Positions 10,714-56,329 of a stretch of 64,000 nucleotides of DNA are shown here, piece after piece. This stretch comes from Blasia pusilla (Eukaryota). The DNA is taken from assembly GCA_050084515.1 (NCBI GenBank), contig CM114271.1:24242001-24306000 (forward strand), written 5' to 3'. Below the pieces are notes generated by a model that saw only the letters and a program-made list of their open reading frames with translations, was not told the DNA's origin and did not search any database. The position numbers and the translations under genes were made by a program. The number at the start of each line of letters is the position of its first letter. The first letter of the stretch is position 1.

Positions 10714-10896
10714 TCTATATTATTATTAGAGTTCTTGGTTTGCAGACACCTCTCTATCTGACATGTGGCAACTAGGCAATAAGAAAATGTTTCCCATATT
10801 ACGGGTAGCAAGAAAAATATTTGAATTTGCATGCAGCATTATTAGTCACTTCAAACACCTTTTTATTTCCCGTGCATAGCACGGACACCTTACTAC
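10714..10896 (+). mobile_element. Short non-autonomous Helitron-like element
   Basis: 5' end A|TCTATATTATTA; subterminal hairpin CCGTGC-ATA-GCACGG; ends CTAC|T (expected CTRR|T). A related inverted end lies at ~63820-63868. Confidence 0.55.
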
Positions 10897-12162: not shown

Positions 12163-12870
12163 ATAGCTTTGATAAGCTTACATCCTTTTCATCTTCCTTT
12201 TTTCTCTATGGGTGAATCAAGGTGATAACTCCGTTTACATATTTTCATTCATGAAGATATTGATGAGGTATTAAAGATTTACGTGTAGGTATGAACATGC
12301 ATGTTTGTACCCATATATGGAGAGTCATGCCCAGGGCGCTTGAGAACTTGGTCATTCCAAAATATCAAGACATATTGAGGTATGTCACAATTCATAGAGG
12401 CTATTGATTGAAGATCCAAAGGGTCCATTAGGAAAATAAGATCTATTTATTTGCATCATACAACATCAATGACATTGGATGTCACAATAGGGCACAAAAT
12501 TTTAAGAGTGCATGAGGTTTTTTCATCCAACGTTCTTTTATTAGAGATATGTGATGATACAGTTTGGAAGGATCATGTTCATAACTACATGCCATGTGTC
12601 ACATCTGAGTAGCCGATAGGCCGAGATCTATCGTGGATAGGGCGTAGGAGCCAACGGACTATATTGAGTGTAACTTTGTCCCACTGTGTTGGATGAGGTT
12701 GAGGATAGGTCCATTGTGTCAGGAAAGTCGTTTCTCGAAACCTTCATGTTGAGGTCTTTCACAGTCGGGTGACTTGTTGACCAGGTCACCCGCCCTTGGT
12801 AACTGTGCGCGCAGGTTACCAAGAGGAGGGCTATTTTTAGAGGAAGAGCCTTTTGGCTCTTTCCCACCCC

Positions 12871-18284: not shown

Positions 18285-18286
18285 AG

Positions 18287-18297
18287 TGGTATCGAGC
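18287..18297 (+). other. Primer-binding site (tRNA-iMet), B1
   Basis: TGGTATC-GAGC 2 nt after the LTR (canonical TGGTATCAGAGC with 1 nt missing). Confidence 0.85.
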
Positions 18298-18433
18298 TAA
18301 TCCTTGGTGGCGAGAACTTGGGGTCGTGGGATCAGCCGGACGCTTGGGAAATTTCAAGGTAGCGGCTAGACTCGGGCGCTTTCGAGGAGGGACGCAAGAA
18401 ACGAGGAGGAGATCTGAGTGAGTTGACTTGGAA

Positions 18434-21400: not shown

Positions 21401-23190
21401 TTCCAAATGCGTTAAGTCGCAAGGAGGAACACATGTCGTCGACGACACAGGTCTTGAGAGCAATGTCCCCTAAGGAAACAGATCTGGAAAGAAGGATTCG
21501 TGAAGGATATATGAAGGATGCTCAAGCGAGGGAATACGAGGAAGTTGAAGCGGGGTGAGAAGGTGGCCAACATAAGTTTGAGGCACGGTCTACTAAGGTT
21601 CAAACAGTAGGATCTATGTAGGGCGAGGCGGGATGCGAACCAAGGTGTTAGCGGAATGTCACGACGGACCCTTGGCGAGGACATAAAGGAGAGAAATCTA
21701 TGCTATTTGTTATGTAAAGCGGTTCTTTTGGCCCAACATGAAAGAGGATGTTGCTCAATATGTGAAGACTGTGTGACCTGCCAAGCAAATAGAGTCTCTT
21801 ATGGTAAGCAGGGCTTTTTGCATCCCTTGCCGATCCCGAAGGACCCTTGCAAAGTGTGAGTATGGATTTCATCACGAGTCTTCGGAATCTGAGGGATACA
21901 ACGCTATACTTGTGATTGTTGATCGGTTTAGCAAGTTGGCGAGATTCGTGCGCGACGGTGGATTCAGAACGGCGTATCTGACAGCGCAACTATTCCTCGA
22001 TAGCTGGTGGCGTGCTCATGGTTTGCCGAGGAGCATTGTTTCAGATCGGGATCAAAGTTTATCGGTGCATTCAGGAAGCACTTGTTGAGAAGGTTTAAGA
22101 CCAAGCTGAGTTTGATGACGGCTTTCCACCTGACGGATGGATGGCCGGCCTGGCGGATGTCTCTTCCCATGTTGGCAAGACCTCTTCATTCGAGAGCTAC
22201 AGAGGAATGCCGACAACCTCGTAAGTCATCTTTTATCCCGGAGCAGCGAGAGTCATCGGGCGTGAATCGATGGATACCACACCCGTTGTGTGGGAATTAG
22301 GGTGTTCGGGTGTTAGATCTCTTTGGAGGATTAGCACGATTGGATTGGGTGCATCAAGTACCTTTATGTGGAGAGAGTGGGCGACGAGTATCATTATGTC
22401 ATGGCAAGATTGGGAGGTATCTGAGTTGTTGCGGTATCAACCTGATGTACACTCGTCATCCAAGCAACTAACCTATCAAATAAGCGGTGAGCATGGCGGA
22501 ATCTTTGCGCTTCGACAACTCGAATTTGCGAATCGGAGAATCTCCGTTTCTCCTGGCAAATGGACGAGAGCCATAAGGGCCTCTTGATCTAGCCCTTCGA
22601 AGGGTACTACATTGGCACGAACCACGACAAGCAACGGCGAAGGTTTGTTGGTAGAGATGCGAGAACGGAAAGAGCGCGCGAGGCGAAGTCTTGCAAAGGC
22701 TCAAATGAGGTACGTTAAGCATGCTAACAAGAGTCGGCGCCAAGTACGATTCCAAGTTGGAGAACAAGTGTGGTTGAGTGTAAAGAATCTCACTCTTCCG
22801 AAAGAGTTGTCTGCGAAGGTATGCCCGCCAAGTATCTTTGGACCCTATGTGGTTGTGGCAAACCCGTTTGAGGATGTGTATACGTTGAGTCTGCCGGACG
22901 AGTTCAAGATTCACCCGACCTTTCATGTGTCATTGTTGAAGAAATATCTTCAAGATAATGGACGTTCGAACGGAGACAGTGGTGAGACCGCACCGGTCAT
23001 CGTAAATGAAGAGCCGGAGTTTGAGGTGGAGACCATCTTACGTTCGGCGTCGGGCCAACAAGTATGAATACTTGGTAAAATGGAAGGCTACCATGTGAAG
23101 GAGGCGACTTGGATTATGGAGGCGGATTTGGAACACGCGCAAGAGTTGTTGCGTGACTTCAAGCGAACACAAGCGAAGCACATACGTTAG
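18434..23190 (+). pseudogene. pol: B1 chromovirus (Ty3/Gypsy) gag-pol with chromodomain; many frameshifts, no 3' LTR
   Basis: [68 protein letters not shown]; chromodomain EFEVETIL..EYLVKW..EATW at ~23015-23160. Confidence 0.92.
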
Positions 23191-23199
23191 TACGAGGAG

Positions 23200-23711
23200 A
23201 AGCTAGAGACATGACTTGTAATCAGTGGAATCTTGGGCCGAAGGCCGTTGTAACTAGAATATGTTAGTGTTGCAATAAAGGAGTGTATGGATTTGGAGAT
23301 TCGATACCAGTGTTGATTGCAATTTGTATGTGGTTGTGCATGGCTATGAGTCGTTCATCATAGACTTAGAATGTACGACAAGAGGACATACAAGGAGTAT
23401 TTGAGGTGAGAGCTCGTATGTGGATAAGCACCTAGAACAGGACCTTATGTTGGATTACACTCGGGCTCGCCCTAGCGTCGACGGGGCAGATGAAGTCTGT
23501 CTTGGGGCTTGGGGTGATCTTACTTGTGGCCACATAAGTAAACTTAGTGACGCGCCTAAGTCGAATACGAGAGCGACCCAATAGTAGTACGATTTGTGGA
23601 CCAGGTAAACAGGTGTGATGTTTACAGTAATGAGTCGAAAGAGTCTAAGGTTGCACACTTAGTTAGCTTATTTGATAGGTTAGTTGCACGTGTGATGACG
23701 AGTGTACATCA
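23200..23711. mobile_element. Unidentified non-coding, LTR-like fragment abutting the inverted DNMT piece
   Basis: Sharp boundary ...GTGTACATCA|ggttgatacc cuts the DNMT frame at YPELLPVST. No second copy or other end found. Confidence 0.35.
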
Positions 23712-24108
23712 GGTTGATACCGGCAACAACTCAGGATACCTCTGGACCAATCTTGCCACGTGACATAATGATACTCGTCGCGCGGTCTCATCTCTCTCTA
23801 CATAAAGGTACTGATGCACCCGTATGCCTGCCTGCAATAGTGCAGCCAATCCGGTGCTAATCCCTCCAAAGAGATCTAACACCCGAACACCCTCCTCTAG
23901 GCACTGCCACACAACGGGTGTGGTATCCACTGGCGTCAATGTCTCCACTCCAAAGCCCGATCGCCATGTGACTCTCGCTGTTCCGGGATAAAAGCATGAC
24001 TCCACGCCTGCCTCACGAGGTTGTCGGCATTCCTCTGTAGCTCTCGAGTCGTACCCCACAATGATGAAGAGGTCTTGCCAACATGGGAAGAGACATCCGC
24101 CATGGCCT
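23712..24108 (-). pseudogene. Inverted N-terminal part of a family-A DNMT3-like domain (motifs I-II), probably from A1
   Basis: ORF 23709-24059: DTTPVVWQCLEEGVRVLDLFGGISTGLAALLQAGIRVHQYLYVERDETARR..YPELLP. This falls within the part missing from A1 between 17282 and 28982. Confidence 0.85.
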
Positions 24109-27100
24109 GTCCATCCGTCTGTGGGTGGAAAGCCGTACTGAAACTCAGCTTGGTCTTAAACCTTCTCAACAAGTGCTTCCAGAAAGCACTGGTAAACTTT
24201 GGATCCCGATCTGAAACAATGCTCCTCGGCAAACCATGAGCACGCCACCAGCTATCCAGAAATAGTTGCGCCATCGTATACGCCATTGCGGAATCCACCG
24301 TCGGCACGAATCGCGCCAACTTGCTAAACCGATCAACAATCACAAGTATAGCGTTGTATCCCTCAGATTCCGGAAGACTCGTGATGAAATCCATACTCAC
24401 ACTTTGCAAGGGTCCTTCTGGGATCGGCAAGGGATGCAGCAAGCCCTGTTTCTTATCATAAGAGACTCTATTTGCTTGGCAGGTCACATAGGTCTTCACA
24501 TATTGAGCAACATCCTCTTTCATGTTGGGCCAAAAGAACCGCTTTGACAAAACAGCTAGCGTAGATTTCTCTCCTTTATGTCCTGCCAAGGGCCCGTCGT
24601 GACATTCCGCTAACACCTTGGTTCGCATCCGCCGCCGCCTACATAGATCCTACTGTTTGAACCTTAGTAGACCGTGCCTCAAACTTATGTTGGCCACCTT
24701 CTCACCCTACTTCAACTTCCTCGGGTATTCCCTGCTTGAGCATCCTTCATATATCCTTCACGAATCCTTCTTTCCAGATTTGTTTCCTTAGGGGACATTG
24801 CTCTCAAGAGACTGTCGTTTCGGCGACATGTGTTCCTCCTTGCGACTTAACGATATGGAATCACATTATCTTTACCGGCTTATGAATCAACTCAATATCC
24901 ATCAGCGCTTAAGGTATCATGCCACCGCAATTGTTTGGTGTCACTCGATCCTGGTCTCAAAATACTTGAGTGATATATTATCGGTGAATACTCGAGTCTG
25001 TGGAGCCCTAGATAATGCCGCCACTTCCTCAAGCAATGTACCACCGCGAACAACTCTTTCTCGTGAGTAGGCCATCTCCTTTCAGTATCGCTAAGCTTCT
25101 TGCTCTCATATGCCACCGGTCTCCTTCTTGCACCAACATTCCGCAACCGCGAAATCACTAGCATCGGTATGCACTTGAACGGTTTGTCAAACTCCGGCAG
25201 CTTTAACTTGGTTCTGCGATAGAATCGGCTTCACTCGGTTGAATGCCTCATTAACTTCCTGGGTCCAAGTCGTGTTGGCAAACTTTGTTGTCCAATCCGT
25301 GAGAGGTCTCACATTCCGAAAAGTTTTTCACATAAGTACGATAAAATTGCACCGCACCTATGAACCTCCTCATCCCTTTACAATGGATGGGGTCCCCTTT
25401 CTGAAATCGCCTTTACCTTTTCCATGTCCGGATCGACGCCATCTGCCTTGACCGACCACGTGACCCAAGAATTTGATCTTACTCAAACCTAATTCGCTCT
25501 TCTCTACATTCGATACTGGTGATTTGCCCTTATCTTAGACAAGACCGCTCTCACATGTCGAACGTGCTCCTCTAGTGACTTGAATAGATAAGTATGTCAT
25601 CGATATAGATGATAACATACTCATCCATTTCCTTGTGAAAAATGGAGTTCATCAATGTGGTGAACGTTGGGGCGCGTTACATAGATCGAAAGGCATCACT
25701 ACAAACTCAAAGGAACCGTATCTCGTCCGCACGCAATCTTCTCCACATCCGCCTCGGCAATCCGACTGGTAATATCCCGACTTCAAGTCAATCCTACTGA
25801 AATATCTTGCGCCTACCGCCTATCAAAGAGATCATCTATCCTCGGAAGAGGATAATTGTTCGAACCGTCACTTTGTTCGGTGCACGGTAATCAACACACA
25901 ACCTCATCTTTCCATCCTTCTTCTTTACAAAGAGAACAGGTGCTCCATAAGGTGACTTGCTAGTCCTAATGTAACCCTTTTCCAAGAGCTCACTTAACTG
26001 CTTTTTCAACTCAAGAAGTTCCTCCTGATTCAACCTATATGGTGCTTTTGAAGGCGGTTGGGAACCGGGTATGATCTCTATCTTATGATCTACGGCTCTA
26101 TGCGGCGGAAATTCAATCGGAAGCTCATTTGTCAAGACATCCTCAAACTCCTTGACCACTTCCTGGAGTGGTTCTGGGACTCCCCTTGAAGCAGTGTCAT
26201 GATCTCTGCGTATACTGCTTGTAGCCTCCTCCACTTGTCTCATCAAGCAGAGAAATCCATCCTCCAACTCAGTCATGCTCCTCCTTGTGATCGAGTTCAC
26301 CAACTCCATTTTCGCTGGAACCTCACGGACCAACCGCACCTGTAACCGTTTGCCTTTTAGCAAGACGCTCAACCTCAAGGGTCTACATCTTAACTCCACC
26401 TCGTACGCATCTAGGAATGTATTCCCCAAGACTCCGTCAATGCCATCCATTTCGCACACCGTGAAATTCTCCTTCAACTCGAATACCCCGCATCCTACTG
26501 TCAAACCCAAGACCAAATCAGAAGTCCGATGAGACTTGCCTCGTGCAAATCCCACTCGAATGGGCTCGTCCGCCTTAGAGGTAGACAGCCCCAGTTCCTT
26601 CACGATTCTTGGGCTTAGGAAGGAGTGCGAAGCACCTGTATCCACGAGCAACAACACATCGCGACCAGCAATCTTGAATCTTAGGTACACCAAATTGTGC
26701 GTCCTCTTGGTGACTTGAAGGGACGTCTTGAGATCGCCCGCCAACAGATGTTTAGCAGCAAACGCAATCATACTCCCATTACTAACCTTCGGTTTCGAAC
26801 ACCCTTTTGACAGGTGCCCAGGTTCGCCACAGTTGTAGCATACAACCTTGCCGTTTCCTGACTTTGAGTGTTGTCCTCCTTTTGGTTTTGCATGAAGTTC
26901 CACTCGTTTTCTTTGCAGCCGGGCGACTCTCTAGTTCGTGCTGGCCCCCACTCCAGCCTCTTTTGAACGCCTCCTTATTTTTCGACTTCTTTGAAAAAAA
27001 ATTTGACTCGAAGGGTTTCTGGGTTTGGACCTCATCGTCCCCAATCCGCTCCGCTAGCCTCAGGAGATCCGCGTAGGTCTCTGGTAACATCGGCATTCGG

Positions 27101-27831
27101 TAAAGGGCCTTCTCAGCGCTCGGCTTGAGTCCGCTAATGAAGATAGCCTTCTTCGCGTGCTCATCCATCTTCGGACTAGAAGTCAGTTTTGCACTAAACT
27201 CCCTCACATACGCGCTTAAGGAACCACTCTGCCGCATCCGCACGCATTCCACCGTGTCGCGCAACCCTTGGTACTCCGGATTGAACCGATCCCCAATCAA
27301 CTCCTTGAACTCCTCCCAACTCAGAGGTGACTCGCCGCCCAGATATTCCTCTCGTTGAGCTGTCCACCATTGTAGAGCATGATCCTTCAGGAAAGTAACG
27401 ACTACCGTCACCTTGTCCTGCTCAGCAGCCCTCTGCGCCTCGAAGTACAGTTCCAGTTCCGTAAGGAAATCCTTCACTTTCCGCGAGCGCCCCACTCTCG
27501 TGAATGGCGTGGGCAGGTTCGTCTTGCAGAGCTTTTTGCCCCCACCCGGGTTTCGAGTGGCCTCTAACTCTGCAATCCGCTTGCTTTGCTGGGACATCTG
27601 CTCCACCAACACCTTCAACAAGTCCAACGTCTGGCTCGACTCCGTCCTTTCCCCTGAGTTTGGGCCCACCGGCCCCGCGGAAGGAGTTGCTTCTGGAACG
27701 TCCTCACGAATGGCGTTCAGCTCTTCGGGTGTCTCCGTCTCCACCATAGCTTCACGGTCCGGCATTGGTTCCTCTCTTGGTTCTCGTCGCTTGATTCGGC
27801 GCTTCTTGGGTTGTTCTCCCTCGATCGCCAT
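24109..27831 (-). pseudogene. pol: B2 chromovirus gag-pol, truncated in integrase after HPQTDGQ
   Basis: ORFs 26782-27837 (gag), 25836-26903 (CCHC, LVDTGAS, RT N-terminus) and 23936-24628 (integrase). Near-identical to B1 in inverse orientation. Confidence 0.92.
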
Positions 27832-27966
27832 TTCCAAGTCAACTCACTCAGATCTCCTCCTCGTTTCTTGCGTCCCTCCTCGAGCGCCCGAGTCTAGCCG
27901 CTACCTTGAAATTTCCCAAGCGTCCGGCTGATCCCACGACCCCAAGTTCTCGCTCACCAAGGATTA

Positions 27967-27978
27967 GCTCTGATACCA
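27967..27978 (-). other. Primer-binding site (tRNA-iMet), B2
   Basis: gctctgatacca is the reverse complement of TGGTATCAGAGC, 2 nt from the LTR. Confidence 0.92.
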
Positions 27979-27980
27979 CT

Positions 27981-28981
27981 TGTCGCGCCCCTACTCTCGT
28001 TGAACGTCAATCTTTAGTGTTGCGGAAGCGTGCGTTTAGTAGGTCACGAACTCATCGCCGATCTGCACCCAAACACGCACTCTCGTTAGTCGGGTTTGGC
28101 CAACCGGCGTTCCAACCCACCGAGTCCTCAACTCGGCGTCTCATCAAGCTCAAACTTCCTTAGTTCCTAGCTTCCAACACATGGCAAGTCCTTCAAGACT
28201 TGGAACAGACTTTCTGGTTAGTCCAAGGATCTGAAACGGCACTTGCACGCCTAGCGATCCCAACTGTTCAACGGTCCTCGGGTGAGTTCTGAACGAGACC
28301 CAAGTAATTGAGTCGCGAGGTGGAATCCAAGAGGGATGTCTAAAATCGCCTCACTGGACTTGGTGCAGGTTTTCCAACCCAACCCCCAAACTCGCGTTCC
28401 GTTCCATGCCCTTGAGCCGCCTCGTGGCGCCCAAAGTGGGGTTTGGGTTCCAAGCACTCTCGGAGACCTTCCCCCTAACTAGTACTTCTGGGGTTCTCCA
28501 ATAACCCCTCCCCTTTGGGAAAAGAGGTTCGGGCCCTTCATTGTGGCCCTCAACAAGACTCCACTTACAGTCGTTTTCGGGTTGTATCTCGGCCGTTGCT
28601 TATGCGTTTGCAATGATCTTTGGTGCGTTTGGACCGGCTCTCCATAAGCTTTCCAACTCACTCTTATTTGCTCCTAACGCATCTTGGCGCTAAAAGTTAT
28701 GTCCATAAATACAGTCGGAAACTCTCAAACGCTAGTGGCGTTCCAAATCCGGATCTTCCCTTTGGCAACCCACTTCCTAGACTCGACTTCTTTCAAGTCT
28801 CATTCCGCGTTTGGTCCAGGTTTCACAATTGCGACCATAACACCTAAAACGCGACTCCTTGTTCGCGTCTCGTCTCTTGTCTCCTCTTTGAGACAACTCC
28901 AACGCGCAAACCATCTTAGCGTGAGCCTACTAATGTTCCGATGTTCCGCTTGGCACTTGTTTGGTCATGAGGGTCGCGACA
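27981..28981 (-). repeat. 5' LTR of chromovirus B2
   Basis: Reverse complement of 17283-18284 with scattered substitutions; TGTCGCG/CGCGACA ends. Confidence 0.92.
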
Positions 28982-29500
28982 GTCCTGGTTGGGACCTGCT
29001 GTGTTATTAGATGCGGCGAGAGTTGGATCACGTGCTCATCATCCATGATTGTGGTGGACGAACTTGATACCATCAGAGGTACTGAGTTGAGCTTACGATG
29101 GAGTCCAAAGAGCACCACATCTCACAATGGATGCTATTTTGGGCTTAGGGCGTCGATCTCAGGTAGTGACACGGGATGATAGACCATCGTTGGCCATGGC
29201 CGATAGGGTGGGGGAGTTGAGGACAGCCTTACCTACGTTGGTGAGCTTACCAGCATCCCATGCCTTTCGTCAAGGAGGGCAAGGCATGATTTGGGATGAG
29301 GTGACCGACGCAATGGAGGAGCGTACAGCAAATGAGCGCGAGCGCGCCATGGGGCTTGCTACCTGTACTACGGCAGTGCCAGGGATGACTGAGGCATCCC
29401 AGAGACAAGTGTTGGGGAAGGAAATGGACCTCAACTGTCTCACATGGATAGTGAGGCTAGGTATGGCTGAGCAGAGACGGATGCGAGTGTCATCCATGCC
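28982..29500 (+). pseudogene. A1 DNMT3-like domain, C-terminal half
   Basis: SWLGPAVLLDAARVGSRAH, then ERERAMGL (motif IX-like) and QRQVLGKEMDLNCLTWIV (motif X-like) in ORF 29127-29513. Confidence 0.85.
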
Positions 29501-29759
29501 GTCACATCCATGAGTTGGACCATTGCCTACAGGGTCTGTACATGCATTGGCTGGGGGCAAGACGAGGAGAAATAGGCACCCATGGACTTCCTGGGACGTC
29601 ATTCGAGCAAAGAGTGTGAAGGAGGCTAGAGTAGCACATGTTCATTTTTTGGATGTAGAGCATGGTGTAGGAGGTCAGAGTGGAGTGGTTATTGCGGAGG
29701 TGGCTAGGGTTTCTACATAGCAACCAAAGCCAAAGGTTGCGTCCTCTCCGAGTGAGGTC

Positions 29760-32537
29760 ACGATGGAGACTTGGGAGCATGTGATAGGTCTCAAGTTGAT
29801 AGGAGGAGAGCAACGGCGAGTTCATAGGTTTCTGAGAGGGCGTGTCAATTGTTTTTCCTTCAGTATGAGAGACTTGGGTACGTTGAAGGGTCTCGGGATA
29901 TGGATTGAGTTGGCTAGTGATACGCCGATCTTTCGTCGACCCTACAGGTATTCTAATATGGAGCGAGCCTTGATTCAAAGTGGGAGTCACAACTTGTTGG
30001 AGGCATGACTTGTGGAGTTATCACATGGGGAGTATGCATCTGCCACAATCATGTGGACGAAGAAGGATATGTATGGCAATTGGACGGATAGGTGGATGTG
30101 TGGAGATTACCGTCCTATCAACCGACAGACGAGGTCAGATCGGTACGTTATGCCTATTCTTGAGGAGATCTTTGATGCAGTAGGACATGCGAAGATCTTC
30201 AGTACTTTAGATCTCGGTGGTGGTTATCATCAGCTTCCTATCAAGTTGGAGGACAGGGAGAAGACAACATTCTGGGGTATAGATCGATTCGGGAAAGATT
30301 GCTTGTATCAATGGCGGTTCTTACCATTTGGGTTGAAGAACGCGTCTGCAGAGTTTTAGAGAGTAATGGATAGGATTCTGGCTGGCTTGGAGTTTGTACG
30401 ATGTTACATAGATGATATTCTTATCTTCAGTTCCACGATTGAGGAGCATGAGCGACACCTGGAGGAGGTGTTTCGGAAATTGCAGTTACATAGACTGAAG
30501 TTACATCCAGGCAAGTGCAGATTCTTTCACGAGTAGATTGAGTATTTGGGACACACCATATACCCGAGTGGGTTAGGCGTTCAACAGACGAAGGTAGAGG
30601 CTATTGCGCAGATTCCACGCCCTACAGATGTGAGTCGAGTCCGAGGATTTCTTGGACTGACAAACTTCTATCAATCGTATGTCAAGGGTTTTAGTGCGAT
30701 CGCAAAGTCTTTGACCTTGTTGACGAGACTTGATCAGGTTTGGTTGTGGGGAGATGATTAGGAGCGAGCATTTCAGGAGCTCAAGGACAGGTTGACGTCC
30801 TCACCCATTTTACAGAGACCGGTTAAGGGTGGACCATTCCAGTTACATACGGATTGGAGCATGTTGGGTCTAGGAGCAGTGCTTACTGAGAGGGATGATG
30901 AGGAGAGGGAGTTCGTTGTGGTTTACGCGAGCCGATCGAGCAACATTGTAGAGGCAAAGTACAGCTCCTACGAGGGAGAGTGCTTGGCTGCAGTGTGGGC
31001 CGTGGCACATTTCAGGTGCTATTTATTCGACAACCCTTTCACACTTATCACTGATCATCATCCGTTGAGTGGTTGATGGAGTCCGACAAGCTTACAGGAA
31101 AGCTTGCCAAGTGGGCTCTATTACTACAGGAGTATGAGTTTGAGGTGGTTCATAGGCCAGGTTGGCTAAACCAGGATGCGGATGGGTTGAGTCGTAACCC
31201 ATGTCCGAGTCAGAGAGACGACACTGGAGCTTGATGGCACAGAGAGAGTGATGAGGAGATGGTGCCCGGTTGGCATGCATCTGCCTATCTTTGTTGGTTG
31301 ACTATGGCACGTCAGCCACAGGTGATGACTCCGGTGGTGGGGTTGGATAATGAGTCTTTCGATCTGGAGATTAGTGAGGAGGCGACAAGTGGTCGTGATA
31401 TCCATGACAACGTGGAGAGTGTGGAGTTCTTGCGCACTGGCGTCATAGCGAGTACAGTGAGTGCTAGGGAGCGGGATCGGATCCTACAGAGAGCCAAGAG
31501 GTTCAGGTGGGAGGAGACTCACATTTTGCAGGTATGGGGAGATGGTAGGATACGAGTGGTACCTCATCCTTCCCAGCGAGCACGTGTAGTGCAACATGCC
31601 CATGAGGAGTTGGGAAATTTTAGAGTAAAGCGTACTTACAGCTTACTCCATGTTCAATATTGGTGGCGCGGCATGCATATTGGGGTACAGCAGTTTGTGG
31701 CCAGATGTATGGTATGTGACAAAGTGCGAGCATCCTTCAATGCTCCCACTCCGTAGTTACATCCTTTGCCGATTATGGGTTTAGGTTATCGGTGGAGTTT
31801 AGACTTTGCGGGACCTTTGCCATTGACGGGGCGTCATCATAGGTACGTGTTGGTCATGGTGGAGCATTTCTCCAAGTGGATAGAGTTGGTGGCACTACCA
31901 GACAAGGCGAGCGAGGGAACAGCTTATGCGTTTCTAGATCGTGTGCTTAGTCACTTTGGTGCACCGGCGGAGGTGTTGAATGACCAGGGTATCGAGTTTA
32001 GGGGAGAGTTTCAGGCCTTGTGTGATCAGGCGCTGATAGATCACCCCACCACATCCAGAGATCATCCTGAGGCGGATGGGTTGGCGGAGAGAGTGGTACA
32101 GACGGTGAAGAGAGGATTGCGCAAGTATGGCTTGCAACGGGGACAGTTGAGGGAGTGGGACCTACAATTGCCATGGTTGGCTATGGATTATTGCTTGAGT
32201 GGGCAGGCATCCTTGGCATCATTTTCATTGTACTTTTTGCTCTTTGGGAGAGAGCCAGATTTACCTGCAGCAATTCGACGTGACATGGCGGAGGTGTTAG
32301 ATCTTGATGATCAAGATGTGTGGGTACAAACATGTTCTCAGAGGGCGGAGATTTTTCGTAGAGTTATGCCTATGGCCTTTGAGAACTTAGCTATTGCCCA
32401 ACATAGAGATACATTGAGGTACGCGACCATTCGTGAAGGAGGTTATCGTCCAGGGATTAGGAGGCTTCATCCTGGAGATTACGTGTATTTACAGCATGCG
32501 GCACCCACGACGCTAGATGTCACTGCAGGGCGCATGA
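29760..32537 (+). pseudogene. pol: A1 RT - RNase H - integrase
   Basis: MCGDYRPIN, STLDLGGGYHQ, LPFGLKNA, CYIDDILIFS (~30405); LHTDWS, YEGECLAAVWAV, ADGLSR; HEELG..CMVC, SLDFAGP, DQGIEF, ADGLAERVV. Confidence 0.92.
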
Positions 32538-32819
32538 TGTCGTGCGAATCCACATCGTCATACAACATACATCGCTGACATACCATACTCACATACACAC
32601 ATAACATAGACGAGAGCATCCACAAACACAAGTGTACCACAACTCGCCCCCCTAACTGGCGGTTAGGTCCCTCTAACTCCCAGATAGCCCTATACATCTA
32701 CTACATGCTATACACCTTCTTGGGTGCACGAATCAGAAGGCCGGGTGCTAGGCTGCCCCATCGTTAGTCGCACATCTGTAATCCATATCATGCAAAGATC
32801 AAGTCATCTACCTCTCCTA

Positions 32820-32957
32820 AGTACATCAAGGAAAAACCCACCTTCCAGTAGGAACAACATCCATACGTGGAGTTAAACACATCATGTGCCCACCCCTAGA
32901 ATACCGATCACACACCAACATACAGGCTGTGTTACCAACACACCCACACAACATGCA
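32820..32957 (-). pseudogene. A2 C-terminal PHD finger
   Basis: CMLCGCVGNTACMLVCDRYSRGGHMMCLTPRMDVVPTGRWVFP*C; C4HC3 spacing with a few decayed ligands. Confidence 0.85.
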
Positions 32958-35900
32958 CCTCAAGCTAGCACGTATCATGGCTAAGCTTGGGTCAACAGTA
33001 CCATCCACATTTGGAAGATGACATGGCGCACAATTACGCACATGGTCCTTTCAAACAACTCCATCACGACCCTCCAACATGAGAACTCCATAAGCGAACA
33101 CCTCGCGCACTCATAAAATAGTGCGGCCTGCCGTCACATCCAACGTTATCGGTGCAATCTTCTGCAAATAGACATAGTCCCCCACATGGAACCTACGAAT
33201 CGATGGTTGATAACCTCCACCCCGAATGGTTGCATACCGCAACGTATCCCTGTGTTGAGCAATGGCAAGATTCTCAAAGGCTGTTGGCATAACTCTCTGA
33301 AAGAGCTCTGCCCGTTGAGAACACACTCTCATCCACATCTCTTCCTCATCAAGGTTCACCACCTCACTAGACTCCCGACGAATTGCTGTTGGCAAGTCTC
33401 GATCTCGGCCGTATAAAAGAAAATAAGGTGAGAAGGAAGCCAAGGATGCTTGGCGATTGAACCTATACCCCATGGCAACTGAATATCCCAGTCTCCAAGA
33501 TATCCCTTCTGTAGGCCATACTTGCGCAATGCCCTCTTCACCGTCTGAACCACACGCTCAGCCAAACCATCCGCCTCTGGATGATCTCGAGACATGGTCC
33601 GATGATCAATCAACGCCTTGTCACACAAGACCTGAAACTCACCCTGAAACTATGTACCTTGGCCGGTCAGCACTTCAGCTGGTGCACCAAAATGACTAAG
33701 CACTCTATCAAGAAACGCATACGCCCATCCCTCATTTGCCTTTTCAGGTAATGCCACCAACTCAATCCACTTGGAGAAGTGCTCCACCATCACCAACACT
33801 AAACGGTAACGATCCCGCAAAGTCCACACTCCAATGGTAACCCAACCCCATAATAGGCAAGGGGTATAACTGTGGTGTATGGGCATTGAATGATGCCCTC
33901 ACCTGGTCACAAACCATACAACATGACACCAACTGTTGCACCTGAGTATGCATGCCACGCCACCAATACTGACCAAGGAGTAAGCTATACGTACGCTTTA
34001 CCCCAAAATGTCCCAACTCCTCATGGGCATGTCGCACAATGCGCTCTCTCTGAGCCAAATACGCCACCACTCGTACTCTATTATTCTCCCACACATGGAG
34101 AATATGTGTTCCCTCCAATCGATACCTCTTAGCACGTTGAAGAACACGGTCTCGCTCCTTGGTACTCACTATGCCTGGCACCCTACTGGTCCGTAGGAAC
34201 TCCAACACCAACGCATCATCATGAATATCACGCTGATCCGTACCACCATCTCCAACCTTAGGATCGAAGGTGGCCATCTACCCCTCGACTAGAGTAAGAT
34301 ATCATGTGGTCCTCCATACTAGAGTCCATCCCTAACCAACATAAAAAGGCGGATGCATGCCAACTTGGCACCATCTCCTCATCAACCTCGCCATGCCATC
34401 TAGCCCCAATTGTATCCTCTTGGCTAATACATTGATTCCTACTCAAACCATCAGCATCAAGGTTGGCAACTCCAGGTCTATGTACCACCTGGAAGTCATA
34501 CTCCTGTAAGATAAGAGCCCACCGTGCAAGCTTCCATGTAAGCTTGTCAGACTCCATCAACCACTTGAGCGGCTGGTGATCAGTAACAAGGGTAAATTGT
34601 GTGCCAAACAAGTAACACCTAAAGTGTGCCCCCACCCACACTCTTGCCAAGCACTCTCCCCTCATATGAACTATAGCGCAACTCCATTTGCATTATTCGA
34701 ACGACTTGCATAGGCCACCAAAAACTCCATGTGCTCATCATCATGTTGTGTCAACACCGCTCCAAGTCCCAACCTACTCCAATCGTGTGTAATCTGAAAT
34801 GGGCGCCCTCGATAGGTCTCCTCTAGATAGGCGCCGCCACCAAGCTGGGCCTTAAGCTCCACAAAAGCTCTCTCTGATCATCTCCCAAAGTGCCACTCTT
34901 GATCTGATTTCAGAAATTGGTTCAAAGGCTTTGCCATAGCACTAAATCCCTTCACATACCTCCGATAGTAGTTCGCCAATCCCATGAATGCTCGAACTCT
35001 ACTCACATCTACGGACGCGGAATAAGTGCAATAGCCTCCACCTTTGCTTGCTGAACTCCCAAACCACTTGGATAGATCACGTGACCCAAGTACTCAACAT
35101 CCTCATGGAAGAACTTACACTTTCCTCGATGCAAACGTAGACCATGAGCTTTCAACCGCTCAAACACCATCTGCAAATGTATCGATGCTCCTCCACCCAT
35201 TCTTGAACACCAAGATATCATCAATGTAACACCGAACAAAATTCAACCCTGCTAGGATCCTGTCCATCACTTTCTGAAACTCGGCAAGTGCATTCTTCAA
35301 CCCAAAGGGTAAGAATTTCCACTGGTACAAACAATCCTTGCCATGAGAGTTGACACCCCAAAATGTTGTCTTGGCCTTGTCACTCTCCGAATCGGCAATT
35401 GATGGTATCTCGCCCGAAGATCCAAAACTGAAAATCTTTGCCTGTCCCACCACATCAAAGATCTCTCAGTGTAGGCATGGCATACCTATCGGCCTTGGTT
35501 TGCCGATTGATAGGACGGTAATCTCCACACATCCGCCTATCCGTGTAGTTGATATGCATATCCTTTTTAGTAGGCATGACAGTGGTTGATGCATACTCTC
35601 CATGCGACAACTCCACTAATCCAGCCTCCAAAAGGTCCAACGTCCTACTCTGAATCAAGTCCCTCTCCATATCACTATATCGGTAGGGACGAGGGAAGAT
35701 TGGCGTATCACTAGCCAAATCAATTCGTATACCGGGTCCAACCAGAGCACCCAACTCCTTCATGCTAAAGGCAAAAAAACTCCTATAAGCACGTAGGAAC
35801 TGTGTCAAGCGTCGTTTCTCACCTCCCGTAAGCTTGGGCCCAAGTAATGGCTCCCAAGTCTCCTCCACTGGCACACTAGAGGGAGAGGACAATGCCATTG
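32958..35900 (-). pseudogene. pol: A2 RT - RNase H - integrase
   Basis: RRMCGDYRPIN, LPFGLKNA..VRCYIDDILVF, TDHQPLKWL..ADGLSR, HEELGHFG..CMVC, SVDFAG, ADGLAERVV. Confidence 0.92.
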
Positions 35901-36139
35901 GCTGCTACGCAACCCCCTCACAAGATGGTACACCCTTAGCTACACCATCATCTGAGCAAATAACTCCTCCACCAACATGAGCAACCAACTCCACATGCCC
36001 AGCCATTACATCCCATTTACTCCAAGGATGCAAAATACTACTCTCCTCGCCCCCAGCTGATGCCTCTACCGTCCCGGTAGCCATCAAGCTCTTTACAAGG
36101 GGTGGAAGACCCACAGACATAGTCCGAAGTCGACGCTGC

Positions 36140-37100
36140 TCAGCCATACCAAGACTCAAAATCCAAGTCAAACAATTCAGGTCCATGGCCTGACCCAACA
36201 CAAGACGTCGTGAAGCCTCAGAAATAGAAGCAACCGCTGTCACACCATTAGCAAATCACATCGCAAGCTCTCTCTCATCAACGTTAGGCTCCACCAATTG
36301 TCGCACATGAGAATCCCATACAAGCCCAGGACCATCTTCCCTGTATGCATGTGAAGAGGGAAAACTCACAAATGTGGATAGTGCCATCTTAGGCTGGCCC
36401 ACACAGTTCACCACTTCCATGGGTGACCGATCAATAACCTCACCACCTGAGAAAGTCGCCCAGTATCCAAGATACTATCCACAGTAAGGCAAGGATCCCA
36501 CTGCACTACATCATATGCTCGACGTAGAACCTCCCTAGGCAACAAGTTTGTCCACAACAAGCGTGGACGATGTGCATGCGAGCCAACTCACGCTGCATCC
36601 AACAACACCGCTGGTCCAATCCAAGACCGCACCTCATGAACACTCGCGATCATCCGGGTCCGAGTGTCACCCAATAATGGAACATTCTCTAGAATGTAAG
36701 CTAGAGCACGTGCTTGATGAACCTGAAGATGTCGTAACACCCGTAACATCTCCCAAAACAATCGAGACCTAGGGTTGTGTAATCCCTCACCACAACCAGC
36801 ATGTGTATGACCCTGACATGGCCATCCAGCAATCACCAAATCCACAAGACCAACCCTCTCAAGGTCCTGTGCCCCCAACAATGCAATGTGTGACGGCAAA
36901 GCACGTTGGTACCCACGAATAGCTGATGGCGGCAACAACTCAGGATATCTCCGCATCAACTGACCAATATGTTGGGATGAGACTCTTTGGGCCGTCTCAT
37001 CTCGCTCCACATACACGTATCTCCGCACAGGAATACCGGCCTGCAACACTGCAGCCAAACCAATGCTAATCCCACCAAAGAGATCTAACACACAAATGCC
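36140..37100 (-). pseudogene. A2 DNMT3-like C5 cytosine methyltransferase domain (full motif set, with stops and frameshifts downstream of motif VI)
   Basis: I VLDLFGGISIG; II YVERD; IV DLVIAGWPCQ (36810-36840); RLFWEMLRVL; VI ILENV (36681-36695); VIII DAA*VGSHAHRPRLLWTNL; X RRLVLGQAMDLNCLTWIL. Confidence 0.93.
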
Positions 37101-37689
37101 CTCCGGCGGATACTGCCATACAATGGGTGTAGTATCCAAAGGGGATAACCCAACTGGACCAAAAGTAGGAGTCCTCCGTGGGGCCTCCTCTTCCTCGTGA
37201 GGTATAACAGCCTCACACCAAGCCTCCTGCACTAGGCGATCAACCTCATGCCATAGTGCACCACCTGAACTCCAAAGTGGCACATCCAACGATGAGGATG
37301 CCACTGCTGTAAAAATAGGGACCTCCTTTACCTCCTCATGCACAGGAGAATCCATAACATAAACATTACCCTAAAAAAAGTCTCATGGCCAAGTGACTAC
37401 TCCACTAAAACCAGCCACAGATGCTAACACTGTTGGGGAAGACCCTCCTGGTCGAGCCCCATAAATAAATCTCACATGAACTTGGCTCATACGTCCATCC
37501 CCGGACTGCCAACCAGGTCTAAAAGATGTTGTCTCAGTCCAGTAATCCATCTGAAAACCCATCGAGTACAATACTGCTCCTCCAACTAGTACATCATACG
37601 TCTCGGCTGATGTGACTACCGCAGATACTCCCAACCGGGAGCTATCAATCGCATGATCTGGTCTCAACTGTACAAAAAACTTCTCCCGT

Positions 37690-38263
37690 TGTCGTATAGT
37701 AAAATCAACCAATGTGTAAACTCCTTCGTCATTAAGTGTTAGATAGAGTTTCATTAGTATTAAGTATATTGGCTTAGAAAAAGGAGATTCTTATGTTTAA
37801 ACCTCTTTATGATGCCTCTTTTATGCGGGCCCAACTTTAGGAAAAGGAGGTAATAAATAAAAGATGACTTTGTAAAAGTAAAGTAGTTGCTTTAATGAAA
37901 AACAAAAGTAGTCTTGGTTGGTGGCTAGGTTAGTTGGGATAATTTGGAAAATATCATGTGGGTAAAAGAGGATATTTTGGAAGAGATAAGAGGAAATCTA
38001 CTTGTGTCAAAATGTGATTGGCTAAGCCTTGAGAGGAAGCCATGTGGCACAAGATAAGATAAGCTCTATTTCGTACTCTTGTGGATCCCTTGTGAGTATA
38101 TAAAGAGGAGGGACCTTCAAGGGTTCATCACCTTCTATTCCACATTTTGAGTCTCTCGCGTCTCTCTTGAGTGTATGGCTTTGGGATTGCTTGCTCTTCC
38201 AATGAGAGTGGATCACCCCTCTTGGGAGAGTAACTTGACCATAGTCTAACCTTGAGAGAGATT

Positions 38264-38306
<43 letters not shown>

Positions 38307-38997
38307 TGTGTGTGTGGAGATGAGAGGTTTGTCACCTTAGAGGAGTTTAGTCATACTGAAATAGAAATAGCGGATGTTTTGGCTTGTTACTTTCCCAATG
38401 AGAGTGGATTACCCTCTTGGGAGAATAACTCCGCCAAAACCCATTCTTGAGGAGAGTAGAGAATGTCTGGCAAGCATGGATAGGGGCGGAGCACGAGTTG
38501 TGCCCGACTTTCCTTTCCTCAATCCATACCATGTCAAGGTACTCTTTGTAGATAGGCACTGGTTCACTCGGTATTTAGTTTATCACTTTGGGGAGGCGTT
38601 CATGAACCGAGTCATGCAATCTCCAACTCCGGTAATCCTTCCTATCGTCACATATGGAAGGACATGGGATTGTACTTTGTATGTCCTTATATAGTGATCC
38701 ATGGATGTCAATAGGCCTGCTCAAGTAGGGTTTAACACTAGTTGTGCTATCTTCCTCGTGTACAAGCGTAAAATAGTCTATAGGGATTTTATAGTTAGGA
38801 ATTTCGGGGTCCGATGTTACGAAGAAGTGATCGCCTCGGCACTTCCATTTGTGATACCTGTCGTGAGAGAATGGAGAGTGTACATCATAATTTTGTATTG
38901 AAAAAGGAGAACTTGTTAGAGAGTTCACCTTGCATCGACCGTATCTACCGCAGCTAGAAGGCCCGCCCTTGCTCGAAGAAAGGCTCTCGACACAACA
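37690..38997 (+). mobile_element. 1.3-kb solo-LTR-like insertion
   Basis: TGTCGTA...CACAACA ends and a 4-bp TSD CCGT. Removal restores A2 FMTR-EKFFVQL. Internal TATATAAA at ~38097. Confidence 0.8.
38266..38315. repeat. (GT)n microsatellite
   Basis: About 25 GT units with one interruption. Confidence 0.97.
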
Positions 38998-41900
38998 CCG
39001 TGTCATGAATTGAGACCTATCATTGGCTCCTCCAAGTGATTTTTTAATATGGAATGGGCAAGGCTCAAGCTCTGACCTCCGAATACCCAAACCAATACAT
39101 GCCGCCTTTCCCAACATCAAAGGTTGGGCACCAGAGTCTAACAAGACTCTATCTGGTCTATACACCTGTCTTGTAGGACTCACCAATTGGAATACCCCAC
39201 TCCGATTGTCTAACATATATACACCAGGTGTAAGCCTCTCACGATCAATGGCTGGCCGGGCTGGTAATGCATCCATCTTCGCCGGTGTTGCCTGCCAAAT
39301 AGGACTGGTACTCAATGCTACACCTGACATAGAGGGTCGCTCCACCGCAACACCCTCATCCACCTCAGCACGTGTAGCACTAACACCCCCATGTTCATAC
39401 AATGTGGCTGATAGCTAAAATACAGGAGCTAAGTCAGCTCTTAAAGCCATCAGCTCCATGGCCGAAAACAATGGGGATCCCAACACTGAAGTTGCCATCC
39501 GCAATACTGCACTAGATGCTGCATCCGTGTCTACTACACACAATGTAGATGCCTCAATCCCCACTGTCGGCTCAATAGGCTGCGTAGGAACCATGGATGG
39601 AGTCCTAAGCACCTCAGACAACAAGAATGACTTGGGAAGCCTAGCCTGCCTCCCGGCCTCACCCCTCTGTGGGTCCAACTCCACAGTAGCACCACGTGGC
39701 TCTGACGCTCGAGTGGCTCCTCTCATAACTGCAGCCGATGCCTCAACCTGTGTTGCACTCGCCATATAAGAGAGATCATCCCCTCCATAAGAGGTGGAAG
39801 CCCCTGCTCCCGAACCTGATCTATGTTGAATACTAGCCATAGTAGCCAACTTCTGCTCCAACTGCTCAATCCTGGCAGCCATAGCTGACTCTGTCGTAGT
39901 GGTAGGGGTAGCCACCGTAGGCTCTCCAACCATTGGTCCACCTCTACCATCTCTACCACCTCGGCCTCTCAGAGCTACTCCACCACGGCCGCGGCCTGAT
40001 CTCAACTCTGGATGAAGATGAAAGCAACGCTCTCGAGGATGACCTGGTCTACCGCAATGATCACACTGAGTTGGGGCCGACTGAGGCCCATCCTCCAAAG
40101 TCCGTTTCCCATCCTCTTGGGAACAAAACTTCCTAACATGATCACCTCCATATGTCCAACATGATTGTCCTTGTTGCGGGGTAGCAAATGAAGGCAATGG
40201 TCTTTGCGCAAGTGTCCCTCTAGGACCTGACTGAGGTCGTGTGTACCCCCCACGACTCCCACTACTACGAGACTGTGAGGTGGGTTGCTGAACACGAGAA
40301 GTAGTAGTTGTATCCCTACTGAATGCGGATGTCACCACTCTCTCCTTCACCATGTTAAGCTCAATCTTCTCAGATAGAGCAAACACATGGGTCAATGTGG
40401 GTGAATTATCACTCATAAGAGTAGCATCACGTACCCTGCGGCGCAACTCTCTGTCCAAGATCCCATACCAAAATTGGACTGCCTGAGCCTCAATCACACC
40501 CTGGGTAACTGAAATCAAGCGTCGCATATGAGTGTATGCCTCACGAAGACTCTCACCAGTCTTTCACTCAAATTCTTGAAGACTCCTTAACTTCTCTGTC
40601 TTCACTCCCTGATAGTTCTTCTTCAACCTCTTGAAGAACTCGCAATCAAGGCTAACGATGGTGGGGCACTAGTACCTCCACTAGTACCCCCACTGGTCCC
40701 TCCATGGGTACCTCCACTGGTACCCCCACTCCGGCTCGTACTCGTACCACTCAACGTCGGGCTGGCTGGCATAGTAGGAGCACTACTACCAATACCACCA
40801 TGGGTGATAGACACATAGCCTGGAGACCAATATTGCCTCCACGCCTCAATCTCAGCAACATGGTCCTTCCTAAACTCATGGTAATCATCCATGGGTGGTC
40901 CCTCCAAGTGCTAAAACAACCCCTTCCAAGCCAAGAAGGGTGTAAACAACGTGGCGTTCCGCAACATCTGCATATCACACCATGTATCAAACTCCTACAT
41001 GAAGTCCTCCAACTCAATGGTGCCCACTGCACCCGAGTATCGTCGTGGGCCCTTCATGGCCCCATATATCATGTCCATGTCCCAAATCAATGGAGCTGCA
41101 ACACTCGATAACAACGTAGAAGACTCGGTGTTTGGAACACCCTCGTCCTCCTCTTCATCAACCGTTGGAAGTGGAAAAGGTAGCTGATACCTAAATCCAC
41201 TCTGTGTGAAACCACCACTGTCCGCACCACGGTCCCCAACCAGACCACCAGACAGCTCCGTGATGACCAACGCCGATGCCGCACCACCACCAAATTATCA
41301 CCACTAAGTAACCAAGTGATGTCGATGTCGCTATACTATTCTAGCTCTACTAGCTATGGGTGTAGGCAACCTAACCTGTCATCACCACAAGAAGCCTCCC
41401 ACGGTCTACTGGTCATCACTCCAGCCTCACTACCGGTAGCACACACGAGTAACACTACTCTGGAAATCAGCGTCAACCCTAACAATGGGCGCGCAAGCAA
41501 GAAGCAACGATGGAGGGGATCCAAACACAGGAAGTCCAACAACAACCCTCCAATCGCAAATGGAAATCAAGGTAACACAATCCACCAAACGTGGCGCCCC
41601 CTGAATCCACAGAACCCATCACACAATTCTAACGCAATAGCTACTCCGCCGCGGGTCGATGACGTGCTAGTCGGACTCACAGCACTTGAAAATATCCCCT
41701 GCATGGAGAGGCTACACCGTACTATGCGCTAGAGGTACATCAACCAAAAACCTGAGATGCATAAAGCGCCTAACACATCTCCGAACAGCACCAAATGAGC
41801 TACAACAGTGTGTACACCGGCATAGTTAAGAACTCACCAATTAAGCGTCTTCCAGGCAGAATAGCCCAAAGATGGATGACCAGTTATGCAACACTCAAAT

Positions 41901-42750: not shown

Positions 42751-43056
42751 ACGATCGTACGTAAGCGCGAGGTATTATCGACCGGAGTCCTCATGTTGGA
42801 GGGACGGGATGGTATGGTTTGGAAGGATAATGTGTGCAATTGTGCGCCATGTCATTTTCGGAACGTAGATGGGACGGTGGATCCGAGCTTGGCAGTGGTA
42901 CCTGCAGGCTTGCGATATATGTTGTGTGGATCTGCGAGGGGTGCAGCCACCATGTTGGTATGCGATGGTTGTTCTCGAGGGTGGCATATGTCACGTATGA
43001 CCTCCCCTCTTTATGTGGTTCCTATGGGACGATGGATGTGTCCGAGATATGTATAG
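42751..43056 (+). pseudogene. A1 integrase C-terminus and PHD finger
   Basis: TIVRKREV..WKDNVCNCAPCH..YMLCGSARGAATMLVCDGCSRGWHMSRMTSPLYVVPMGRWMCPRY. Confidence 0.88.
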
Positions 43057-43270
43057 GGTATTAGGTCATGTCAGAGAGATGTGATATTTTCTATCTGGAG
43101 TTGGAGGAATCCAACTGCCAGCTAGGGGAGCCGTTGTGTGATCTCCATGTATATGTATGAGTTGATTTTTGTACATGCATGGATCGACCCGTGTGTGGGG
43201 AAGATCGGTGTTGTGTGGTGTAGATGTGACCAGCAATGTATGTTGTGTAGCGATATGTATGCGCACGACA

Positions 43271-43506
43271 CATGTCACCTTCCCAAAATTTATGCATGGG
43301 ACCATTGACGTAAGCTTGGTAGTGGTAACTTTAGGCTTGCATTGTATTTTTGTGGATTTTTAAGGGTTAAAACCTCCATGATAGTATCTGATGGGTATTC
43401 AAGAGTGTAGCACATGGCATGTTTCACCCTACCTCTCACTAGCATAGTGAGACGGGGAGGGGGTTCCTTGGGGATGATAGATGTGGCGATATGCATGCAT
43501 GTAACA
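43271..43506 (+). mobile_element. A0 3' remainder (decayed PHD and 3' terminus)
   Basis: HGTIDVSLVVVTLGLHCIF matches DGTVDPSLAVVPAGLRCML; ends gcgatatgcatgcatgtaaca. Confidence 0.7.
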
Positions 43507-56325: not shown

Positions 56326-56329
56326 TATG

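Follow-up and report, generated by a model that had tools for sequence, protein, structure and literature searches.

A stretch of 64,000 nt of the Blasia pusilla genome (GenBank assembly GCA_050084515.1, contig CM114271.1, positions 24,242,001 to 24,306,000 of the forward strand; here called the window, with positions counted from its first letter) was found to carry three dead copies, designated A0, A1 and A2, of a bryophyte lineage of Ty3/Gypsy long terminal repeat (LTR) retrotransposons in which a C5 cytosine methyltransferase (DNMT) domain is placed between the protease (PR) and the reverse transcriptase (RT). The domain order of A2, which lies on the minus strand, was read from stop-to-stop open reading frames (ORFs) and from tblastn comparisons with Marchantia and Sphagnum proteins, and is listed below (RH, RNase H; INT, integrase).

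33111..35904, minus strand: ORF2 of A2, RT-RH-INT, with several frameshifts (ORFs, tblastn)
35905..35907, minus strand: conserved in-frame TAG of A2 closing ORF1 (gag-PR-DNMT), context TAG CAG CCA (copy alignment)
35908..37370, minus strand: conserved linker of about 95 aa and DNMT3-like C5 methyltransferase of A2, the C-terminal part of ORF1 (translation, Pfam)
37383..41078, minus strand: gag of A2 with two CCHC knuckles, and protease (LLDSGAQ) (ORFs, tblastn)
42765..43274, minus strand: LTR-like piece located 5' of A2, with a similarity of 70-82% to the opposite strand of the A1 3' flank (blastn)

The translation of 35908-37370 contains the C5 methyltransferase motifs I, II, IV, V/VI, VIII and X in canonical order, and all seven motifs quoted for A2 in a preliminary description of the window could be located on the minus strand. 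Among them are VLDLFGGISIG (37059-37091), DLVIAGWPCQ with its catalytic Cys codon at 36816-36818, ILENV (E-N-V at 36681-36689), AHRPRLLWTNL (36543-36575) and RRLVLGQAMDLNCL (36169-36210). The 260-aa ORF at 36588-37370 matches the Pfam profile PF00145 with an E value of 5.1e-9 and 36.5 bits, above the gathering cut-off of 22, and relatives score 26-53 bits; when seven ORFs were scanned against Pfam at E 0.01, this ORF gave the sole match and the six others gave none. The domain of A2 is disrupted by in-frame TGA codons at 36588-36590 and 36256-36258 and by a frameshift near 36440, and further stops (37383-37385 and 37371-37373) stand immediately upstream of the linker. In addition, the protease is split by an unrelated insert of approximately 1.3 kb (37689-38997) containing a (CA)n run.

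The two other copies, A0 and A1, lie on the plus strand and are likewise dead.

807..12597, plus strand: A0, an old family copy, with gag 807-1962, DNMT 7290-7955, RT/RH 9094-9980 and INT 10971-12597 (tblastn)
7290..7955, plus strand: decayed DNMT N-half of A0, with remnants of motifs I, IV and VI and many stops, 34% identical to the reference (tblastn)
15084..17248, plus strand: gag-PR of A1 (tblastn)
17283..28981, no strand assigned: block within A1 made of two inverted arms, with foreign Gypsy RT/RH and two copies of the A1 DNMT N-half (blastn, tblastn)
28932..29717, plus strand: DNMT C-half of A1, motifs VI (NV) to X, with three stops (tblastn)
29718..29720, plus strand: conserved TAG of A1, context TAG CAA CCA (copy alignment)
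29721..32534, plus strand: RT-RH-INT of A1 (tblastn)
32533..33108, plus strand: LTR-like 3' flank of A1 (blastn)

In all three copies the domain is situated between PR and RT, as had been proposed for A1 from its C-half and an inverted N-half, and for A0. The inverted N-half of A1 spans 23712-24109, and a second copy with many small deletions was found on the plus strand near 22100-22440; in A0, gag and DNMT are separated by about 5 kb of other sequence. The LTR-like 3' flank of A1 adjoins the truncated 3' end of A2, so that the two copies are arranged tail to tail. A direct LTR pair for A1 or A2 was not found in the window by a repeat search or by blastn with word sizes 11 and 7, which disclosed single LTR-like pieces only, nor did blastn find a matching 3' LTR of A2 there.

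The block within A1 is an 11.7-kb near-palindrome (17283-28981), whose two arms (17283-22485 and 23666-28981) show 91.9% similarity over 5.4 kb on either side of a 1.2-kb spacer. Each arm bears a foreign Gypsy RT/RH (20546-21426 in one of them) together with a copy of the A1 DNMT N-half, and the structure reflects either a duplication in inverted orientation or an artefact of the assembly. The sequences on either side of the A1 and A2 block, 12595-13075 and 43133-43268, adjoin one another in a third copy (47283-46656, minus strand), to which they are 75-80% alike. Accordingly, the 30 kb from 13076 to 43132 seem to have been inserted as a whole into an older repeat, possibly the 3' end of A0.

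Relatives of the domain were sought among proteins and metagenome contigs. A protein search with the A2 ORF gave 51 matches, including 20 from Marchantia polymorpha, two from Sphagnum and two from Calypogeia fissa, the best matches from these three genera being 64-69% identical over the whole query (E down to 5.6e-115), and further relatives, from Riccia sorocarpa, Sphagnum troendelagicum and S. tenellum, came from a second search. One relative, P0238 (455 aa, 52% identity), is assigned in NCBI to a metagenome-assembled genome labelled 'Candidatus Obscuribacterales'; in all likelihood it stems from bryophyte DNA that was wrongly binned with a bacterium. When metagenome contigs were scanned, 184 of 410 pattern-matched stretches were found to encode a relative of the domain; the best 80 of these 184 constitute the metagenome loci, which carry L numbers below. 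The order PR-DNMT-RVT_1-RNase H-rve was recovered by Pfam on full-length proteins, and the full architecture gag-PR-DNMT-RT-RH-INT occurs in Marchantia, Riccia, Calypogeia and Sphagnum. The domain, which had been put forward as a fixed trait of the family instead of a single capture, is indeed present in most copies, the order PR-DNMT-RT being shared by the three window copies, the named liverwort and Sphagnum proteins and the metagenome loci. These elements have the order that is the hallmark of Ty3/Gypsy, namely gag (CCHC), PR, RT, RNase H and INT. Direct LTR pairs were identified at locus L067 (342 nt, 92% alike, TG..CA ends, 8674 nt apart) and at L012 (307 nt, 94.5% alike, 8747 nt apart, TG start, the 3' copy being truncated by the contig end), from which spacing full elements measure about 9 kb. 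Taken together, the identity and the architecture of a gag-PR-DNMT Gypsy element are held with high confidence.

The domain has wider kin. HMMER, run with the L039 domain as the query against 1.84 billion representative sequences, returned 4050 proteins at E <=1e-3, 806 at <=1e-10 and 242 at <=1e-30. Mapping of domains on 219 collected proteins distinguished two architectures: type A, (gag)-PR-DNMT(-RT-RH-INT), represented for example by 27 gag-PR-DNMT and 14 PR-DNMT proteins, and type B, RT-RH-DNMT-INT-PHD, with 41 complete proteins and many fragments. In an unrooted maximum likelihood tree of 179 element-borne domains (type A, type B and unclassed fragments), all 89 type-B domains fell into one part of 113 rows, the other 24 of which were unclassed and none type A (SH-aLRT 89), while 50 of the 52 type-A rows lay outside it. 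A2 belongs to a clade of 44 rows (SH-aLRT 99) alongside sequences from Marchantia, Sphagnum and Calypogeia. When a type-A protein was compared with a type-B one, identity was 36% for RT-RH (492 columns) and 37% for DNMT (324 columns), values compatible with a single old capture of the DNMT followed by its relocation within the polyprotein.

The arrangement of reading frames was deduced from copies outside the window. The near-intact L039 encodes gag-PR (321-3194), DNMT (3195-4511) and RT-RH-INT (4512-6809) in a single frame, with two single stop codons between them. The first of these stops, a TAG about 25 codons before motif I, is private to few copies (TAG in 3/71). The stop at the junction of DNMT and RT is instead present in 37 of 45 aligned copies, A1 and A2 included, as TAG in 29 and TAA in eight. 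In six of the remaining eight (L026, L061, L062, L065, L066 and L077) a stop-Gln pair is aligned a few residues away from the junction; L059 has GAG at the junction, and L074 has neither a stop nor a stop-Gln pair there, with two stop codons further on. Predicted proteins end at the same place: 12 of 18 type-A proteins containing motif X terminate 70-128 aa beyond it, and P0002 from Marchantia polymorpha, the representative of a cluster of 18 sequences, is a gag-PR-DNMT protein of 1278 aa running from Met to stop. Four other type-A predictions continue into RT by way of gene models that splice over the junction. The conserved junction stop and the protein ends place the DNMT at the C-terminal end of ORF1, with RT-RH-INT as an ORF2 in the same frame. 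The position between protease and RT given in the preliminary description is thus correct, but the domain is not a simple internal domain of pol, since it is C-terminal to gag-PR in ORF1 and precedes a conserved stop. In the more distant type-A proteins P0085 and P0094, PR-DNMT-RT is uninterrupted by a stop, which indicates that the stop is a derived trait of the clade containing the bryophyte elements.

In tobamoviruses, the sequence UAG-CARYYA serves as the type I leaky-stop signal (PMC5382211). In a survey of the stop context in 32 copies found by pattern, the hexamer following the stop was CAACCA in A1 and L039 and CAGCCA in A2, so that UAG-CARYYA occurs exactly in three of the 32 copies; these three represent three deep subfamilies, each fitting the signal exactly. 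The others depart from it, with CAACTC in one copy and, in the main metagenome subfamily, CAACCC or a TAA stop. From the conserved stop together with the exact fit in three copies, readthrough is somewhat favoured as the route by which RT-RH-INT would be made.

As for the kind of methyltransferase, a phmmer search of PDB chains placed DNMT3A, 3B and 3C in all of the 29 best entries (E 2e-7 to 2e-4), with M.HhaI (E 0.012), tobacco DRM (0.013) and DNMT2 (0.042) at lower ranks, and in the phmmer alignment motifs I, IV, VI, VIII, IX and X pair with their DNMT3A counterparts. An AlphaFold model of the relative P0001, built from a 12-row alignment, had a predicted local distance difference test (pLDDT) score of 73.9 and a predicted template modelling (pTM) score of 0.78; when it was submitted to Foldseek, all matches listed, ranks 1-49, were DNMT3A/B/C chains, the best being 6brr_A (DNMT3A; E 2.2e-17, TM 0.80 on the target, 21% identity). 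The plant DRM enzymes were considered as a candidate identity and rejected, because the motifs of A2 run in the canonical order I-X and the permuted DRM type (motifs VI-X before I-V) is thereby ruled out. The early assignment as DNMT3-like and not DRM accordingly agrees with the non-permuted order and with the top ranks of DNMT3 by sequence and by fold, which are a ranking of solved proteins and not a phylogeny. No PWWP or ADD reader domains were detected by Pfam in P0002, P0011 and P0025; many non-animal DNMT3s also have none (PMC12344493). The domain appears DNMT3-like by this nearest-neighbour ranking and by the published placement of a Klebsormidium counterpart in a divergent DNMT3 clade (PMC5890265).

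Selection was estimated by aligning copies codon-wise to natural, intact relatives (P0001, P0002, L039 and L012), taken as reference proteins in place of a frameshift-corrected consensus, and by calculating the ratio of nonsynonymous to synonymous divergence (dN/dS) after Nei and Gojobori (NG86). For pairs with dS of 0.5-1 the median ratio was 0.25 for DNMT (n=65), 0.29 for RT/RH and 0.31 for gag-PR, and for dS of 1-3 the rough medians were 0.20 (n=198), 0.23 and 0.26, respectively. Within the window, A1 and A2 gave 0.20 for DNMT over 175 codons and 0.16 for RT/RH over 396 codons, and A0 against A2 gave 0.24 for DNMT. In the closest pairs (dS <0.1) the median for DNMT was 0.91 (n=64), the level that drift of dead copies following their insertion would produce. 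The ratio between subfamilies, for which a value near 1 had been named as the outcome that would speak against a fixed trait, is therefore about 0.2 and like that of RT. Constraint also extends over approximately 90 residues upstream of motif I, some of which are modelled as a confident helix.

Residues of the active site were counted over the 179 domains, which comprise the two architectures and the unclassed fragments. Of these, 174 retain the motif IV Cys, all 179 the motif VI Glu, 164 the first Arg of motif VIII and 170 the second Gly of motif I. On account of this conservation and of the dN/dS ratios, the DNMT appears to be a selected component of the element and not a passenger, and is probably catalytic; identity, architecture and selection are together regarded as likely. 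A separate observation concerns the Pro of the motif IV Pro-Cys, which is replaced by Glu (GWECQ) in 42 of the 89 type-B and nine of the 52 type-A domains, P0043 being an example; the Cys is retained, and the change is unusual for C5 methyltransferases.

Transcripts were looked for in the region 33100-37800. Of 24 listed sequencing runs, 20 contain part of the window and none is recorded as RNA, and three raw RNA-seq runs with the same species label were mapped to the region. They placed 1437, 1465 and 1530 reads, of which only 23, 19 and 28 were at least 99% alike and the remainder 95-99%, indicating that the reads come from sibling copies and not from A2. The first mate lay on the plus strand in 29 of 30 bins, with ratios of about 10 to 100 and with coverage that includes the DNMT region; this bias shows that the libraries are stranded and, provided that they were made in the usual manner, the sibling transcripts are minus-strand RNA in the sense orientation of the element. 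In the last bin, which is within the foreign insert, the polarity was reversed, and loose read ends accumulated at 37689/37690, the boundary of the A2 insert. From the DNA run, 73,097 contig pieces matched at >=95%, which points to many close copies.

The following course of events can be proposed for an active element. Most ribosomes would stop at the UAG and yield Gag-PR-DNMT in Gag-like amounts, and a minority would read through the type I leaky context UAG-CARYYA, adding RT-RH-INT. The protease would release the methyltransferase from the polyprotein, and the freed enzyme would methylate CG sites on new element cDNA or around the insertion, which may shape how the silencing machinery of the host perceives the copy. 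For DIRS elements, de Mendoza et al. have suggested methylation of the cDNA or of the insertion (PMC5890265). That the function of the DNMT is self-methylation of DNA is offered tentatively. The wider picture is that of a land-plant Gypsy lineage, still transcribed and with intact ORF1 copies in Marchantia polymorpha, which would produce Gag-protease-DNMT3 in Gag-like amounts and RT-integrase solely via UAG readthrough, and whose own DNMT would write cytosine methylation on the cDNA or the landing site and so set the epigenetic state of the element; its ancestry would be common with that of a larger and largely undescribed Gypsy group carrying the domain elsewhere (242 clusters at 50% identity, E <=1e-30), through one old capture and later shuffling. 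Taken in all its parts, this picture is rather doubtful.

Several observations weigh against the account of the family given so far. The main metagenome subfamily deviates from UAG-CARYYA, with CAACCC in 20 copies and TAA as the stop (TAA CAA CCC) in eight. An ATG stands two codons past the stop in many copies, making re-initiation possible, and RNAalifold on ten copies gave -17.35 kcal/mol for the RNA after the stop, with a covariation term of -0.97 and an invariant inner hairpin, which is no evidence for a conserved structure there. The PF00145 match of A2 is restricted to motifs IV-VI, approximately profile positions 50-160 of 324. No family copy within the window is intact, and among 68 well-covered DNMT copies just two, L012 and L039, are free of stops and frameshifts; most copies of such families are wrecks, as is usual. 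The RNA reads derive from siblings instead of A2, and their strand is conditional on the library type. The deepest pairs are saturated in dS and their ratios rough, with pN still far below pS (0.33 against 0.71). Finally, the sole Gypsy-borne DNMT3 that has been tested, that of Klebsormidium, gave no methylation in yeast, an outcome its authors call inconclusive (PMC5890265).

The same yeast result may also be taken to favour another substrate, the domain being an RNA 5-methylcytosine methyltransferase or an enzyme of RNA/DNA hybrids that serves the genomic RNA or the primer tRNA in the particle. Being made with Gag and PR in ORF1, the domain would be abundant in the particle near RNA, the RNA enzyme DNMT2 has the same motifs (PDB match at E 0.042), and RNA methylation has been raised by de Mendoza et al. 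for a LINE-borne (long interspersed nuclear element) DNMT (PMC5890265). The nearest proteins by sequence and fold are, however, DNMT3 DNA enzymes, with E values five orders of magnitude better than that of DNMT2, and the region of motifs VIII, IX and X aligns to the part of DNMT3A that contacts DNA, so an RNA substrate is judged unlikely. A non-catalytic role, in which the domain would bind chromatin or host DNMTs and steer integration in the manner of DNMT3L, would fit the motif IV change to Glu (42/89 type-B, 9/52 type-A domains), but binding alone needs none of the catalytic Cys, the ENV Glu, the RxR arginines or the F-G-G that binds S-adenosylmethionine, all of which are almost invariably kept; we consider such a role very unlikely.

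It could also be supposed that the domain is a neutral passenger or an annotation artefact, that is, a host DNMT3 gene adjoining or interrupted by retrotransposons, given that all three copies in the window are disrupted and lie embedded in further repeats and that gene models in eukaryotic databases are chimeric, as in P0011, which skips the junction. The domain nevertheless occupies the same position and frame in three window copies, dozens of metagenome copies and four named bryophyte genera, with deep dN/dS ratios of about 0.2, and L039 has gag-PR, DNMT and RT-INT in one frame save for two stops. If the underlying alignments are right, the dN/dS ratios, the frame of L039 and the conserved stop exclude this explanation.

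Other repeats were noted in the window. A Ty1/Copia-type element at 52790-55735 on the plus strand has several broken ORFs, with a gag containing a zinc knuckle, an integrase and the start of an RT, as judged from translations by eye. A repeat of about 300 nt occurs in at least six copies in both orientations, 73-94% alike (2488-2783, 8543-8832, 10384-10695, 45399-45702 and 56163-57027), and is possibly a miniature inverted-repeat transposable element or a solo LTR. At 60479-61324 there are G+C-rich, diverged tandem repeats, with a self-similarity of 67-70% at offsets of about 150-500 nt.

A retrotransposon that carries the enzyme normally used for its silencing presents a paradox, and the only case from the plant lineage in print concerns an alga that is hard to manipulate and an enzyme that was silent in yeast. 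The present elements bring into land plants a rare kind so far known from a single green alga, and those of liverworts and peat mosses make the question testable, since Marchantia polymorpha is genetically tractable and has the ORF1 protein on record. Because the DNMT precedes a stop of the leaky type, it is predicted to reach the level of a structural protein, and this prediction constrains models of its role. DNMT-bearing retrotransposons have been described in Symbiodinium and Klebsormidium (de Mendoza et al. 2018, Nat Commun 9:1341; PMC5890265), so that the preliminary description was right to name dinoflagellates and a charophyte; later texts mention 'streptophytes (Gypsy-DNMT3)' (PMC12344493; preprint 10.64898/2026.05.21.726589). 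Its further remark, that such elements are not well described in land plants, was borne out in that the literature searched gave no main-text account for liverworts, mosses or any land plant, although supplements may list bryophyte elements; the main text of PMC5890265 is without the word Marchantia. As far as seen, the land-plant hosts, a model species among them, are new, and the ORF1 placement and the conserved leaky-type stop are undescribed.

Comparison with known systems begins with the host enzymes DNMT3A, 3B and 3C of solved structure, which are the best matches in sequence and fold and align motif by motif; the element domain differs from them in being about 21% identical, in having no PWWP or ADD and in being fused to Gag-PR. 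With respect to the stop, gammaretroviruses have the arrangement gag-UAG-pol. The likeness to the type I stop of tobamoviruses consists in an in-frame UAG between an abundant upstream product and the polymerase, and in the exact hexamer of A1, A2 and L039. The present stop differs from both of these in that PR and DNMT lie upstream of it, in that most metagenome hexamers end in C, and in that readthrough is a prediction. The type-B Gypsy elements, which are abundant among metagenome and EukProt proteins, share a homologous DNMT (33-48% identity, E 1e-41 to 1e-88) with the same motifs in a Gypsy polyprotein, but their DNMT comes after RNase H and before the integrase, which is itself followed by a PHD finger.

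The retrotransposons of Symbiodinium, SymbioDIRS-Dnmt3 and SymbioLINE-Dnmt (PMC5890265), resemble the present family in bearing a DNMT, that of the DIRS elements being DNMT3-like and active in de novo CG methylation in yeast; they are tyrosine-recombinase DIRS elements and LINEs of a dinoflagellate host, for which independent capture was argued (PMC5890265). The nearest system is KnitGypsy-Dnmt3 of Klebsormidium nitens (PMC5890265), which has an intronless, non-permuted DNMT3-like domain in a Gypsy coding region, with catalytic residues kept, in a streptophyte host. No Klebsormidium sequence was recovered in the three protein searches for relatives of the domain, and the K. nitens element is therefore compared here by its published description. 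No methylation by KnitGypsy-Dnmt3 was detectable in yeast, which the authors considered inconclusive as human DNMT3B also failed (PMC5890265). Purifying selection is similar, with Ka/Ks <0.2 for KnitGypsy-Dnmt3 and 0.20-0.25 here. The repeats of KnitGypsy-Dnmt3 are arranged as in DIRS according to a figure legend (PMC5890265), whereas the relatives described here have plain direct LTRs. The present family is distinguished by its land-plant hosts, liverworts and Sphagnum, and may also differ in its DNMT, which ends the gag-PR ORF at a conserved leaky-type stop.

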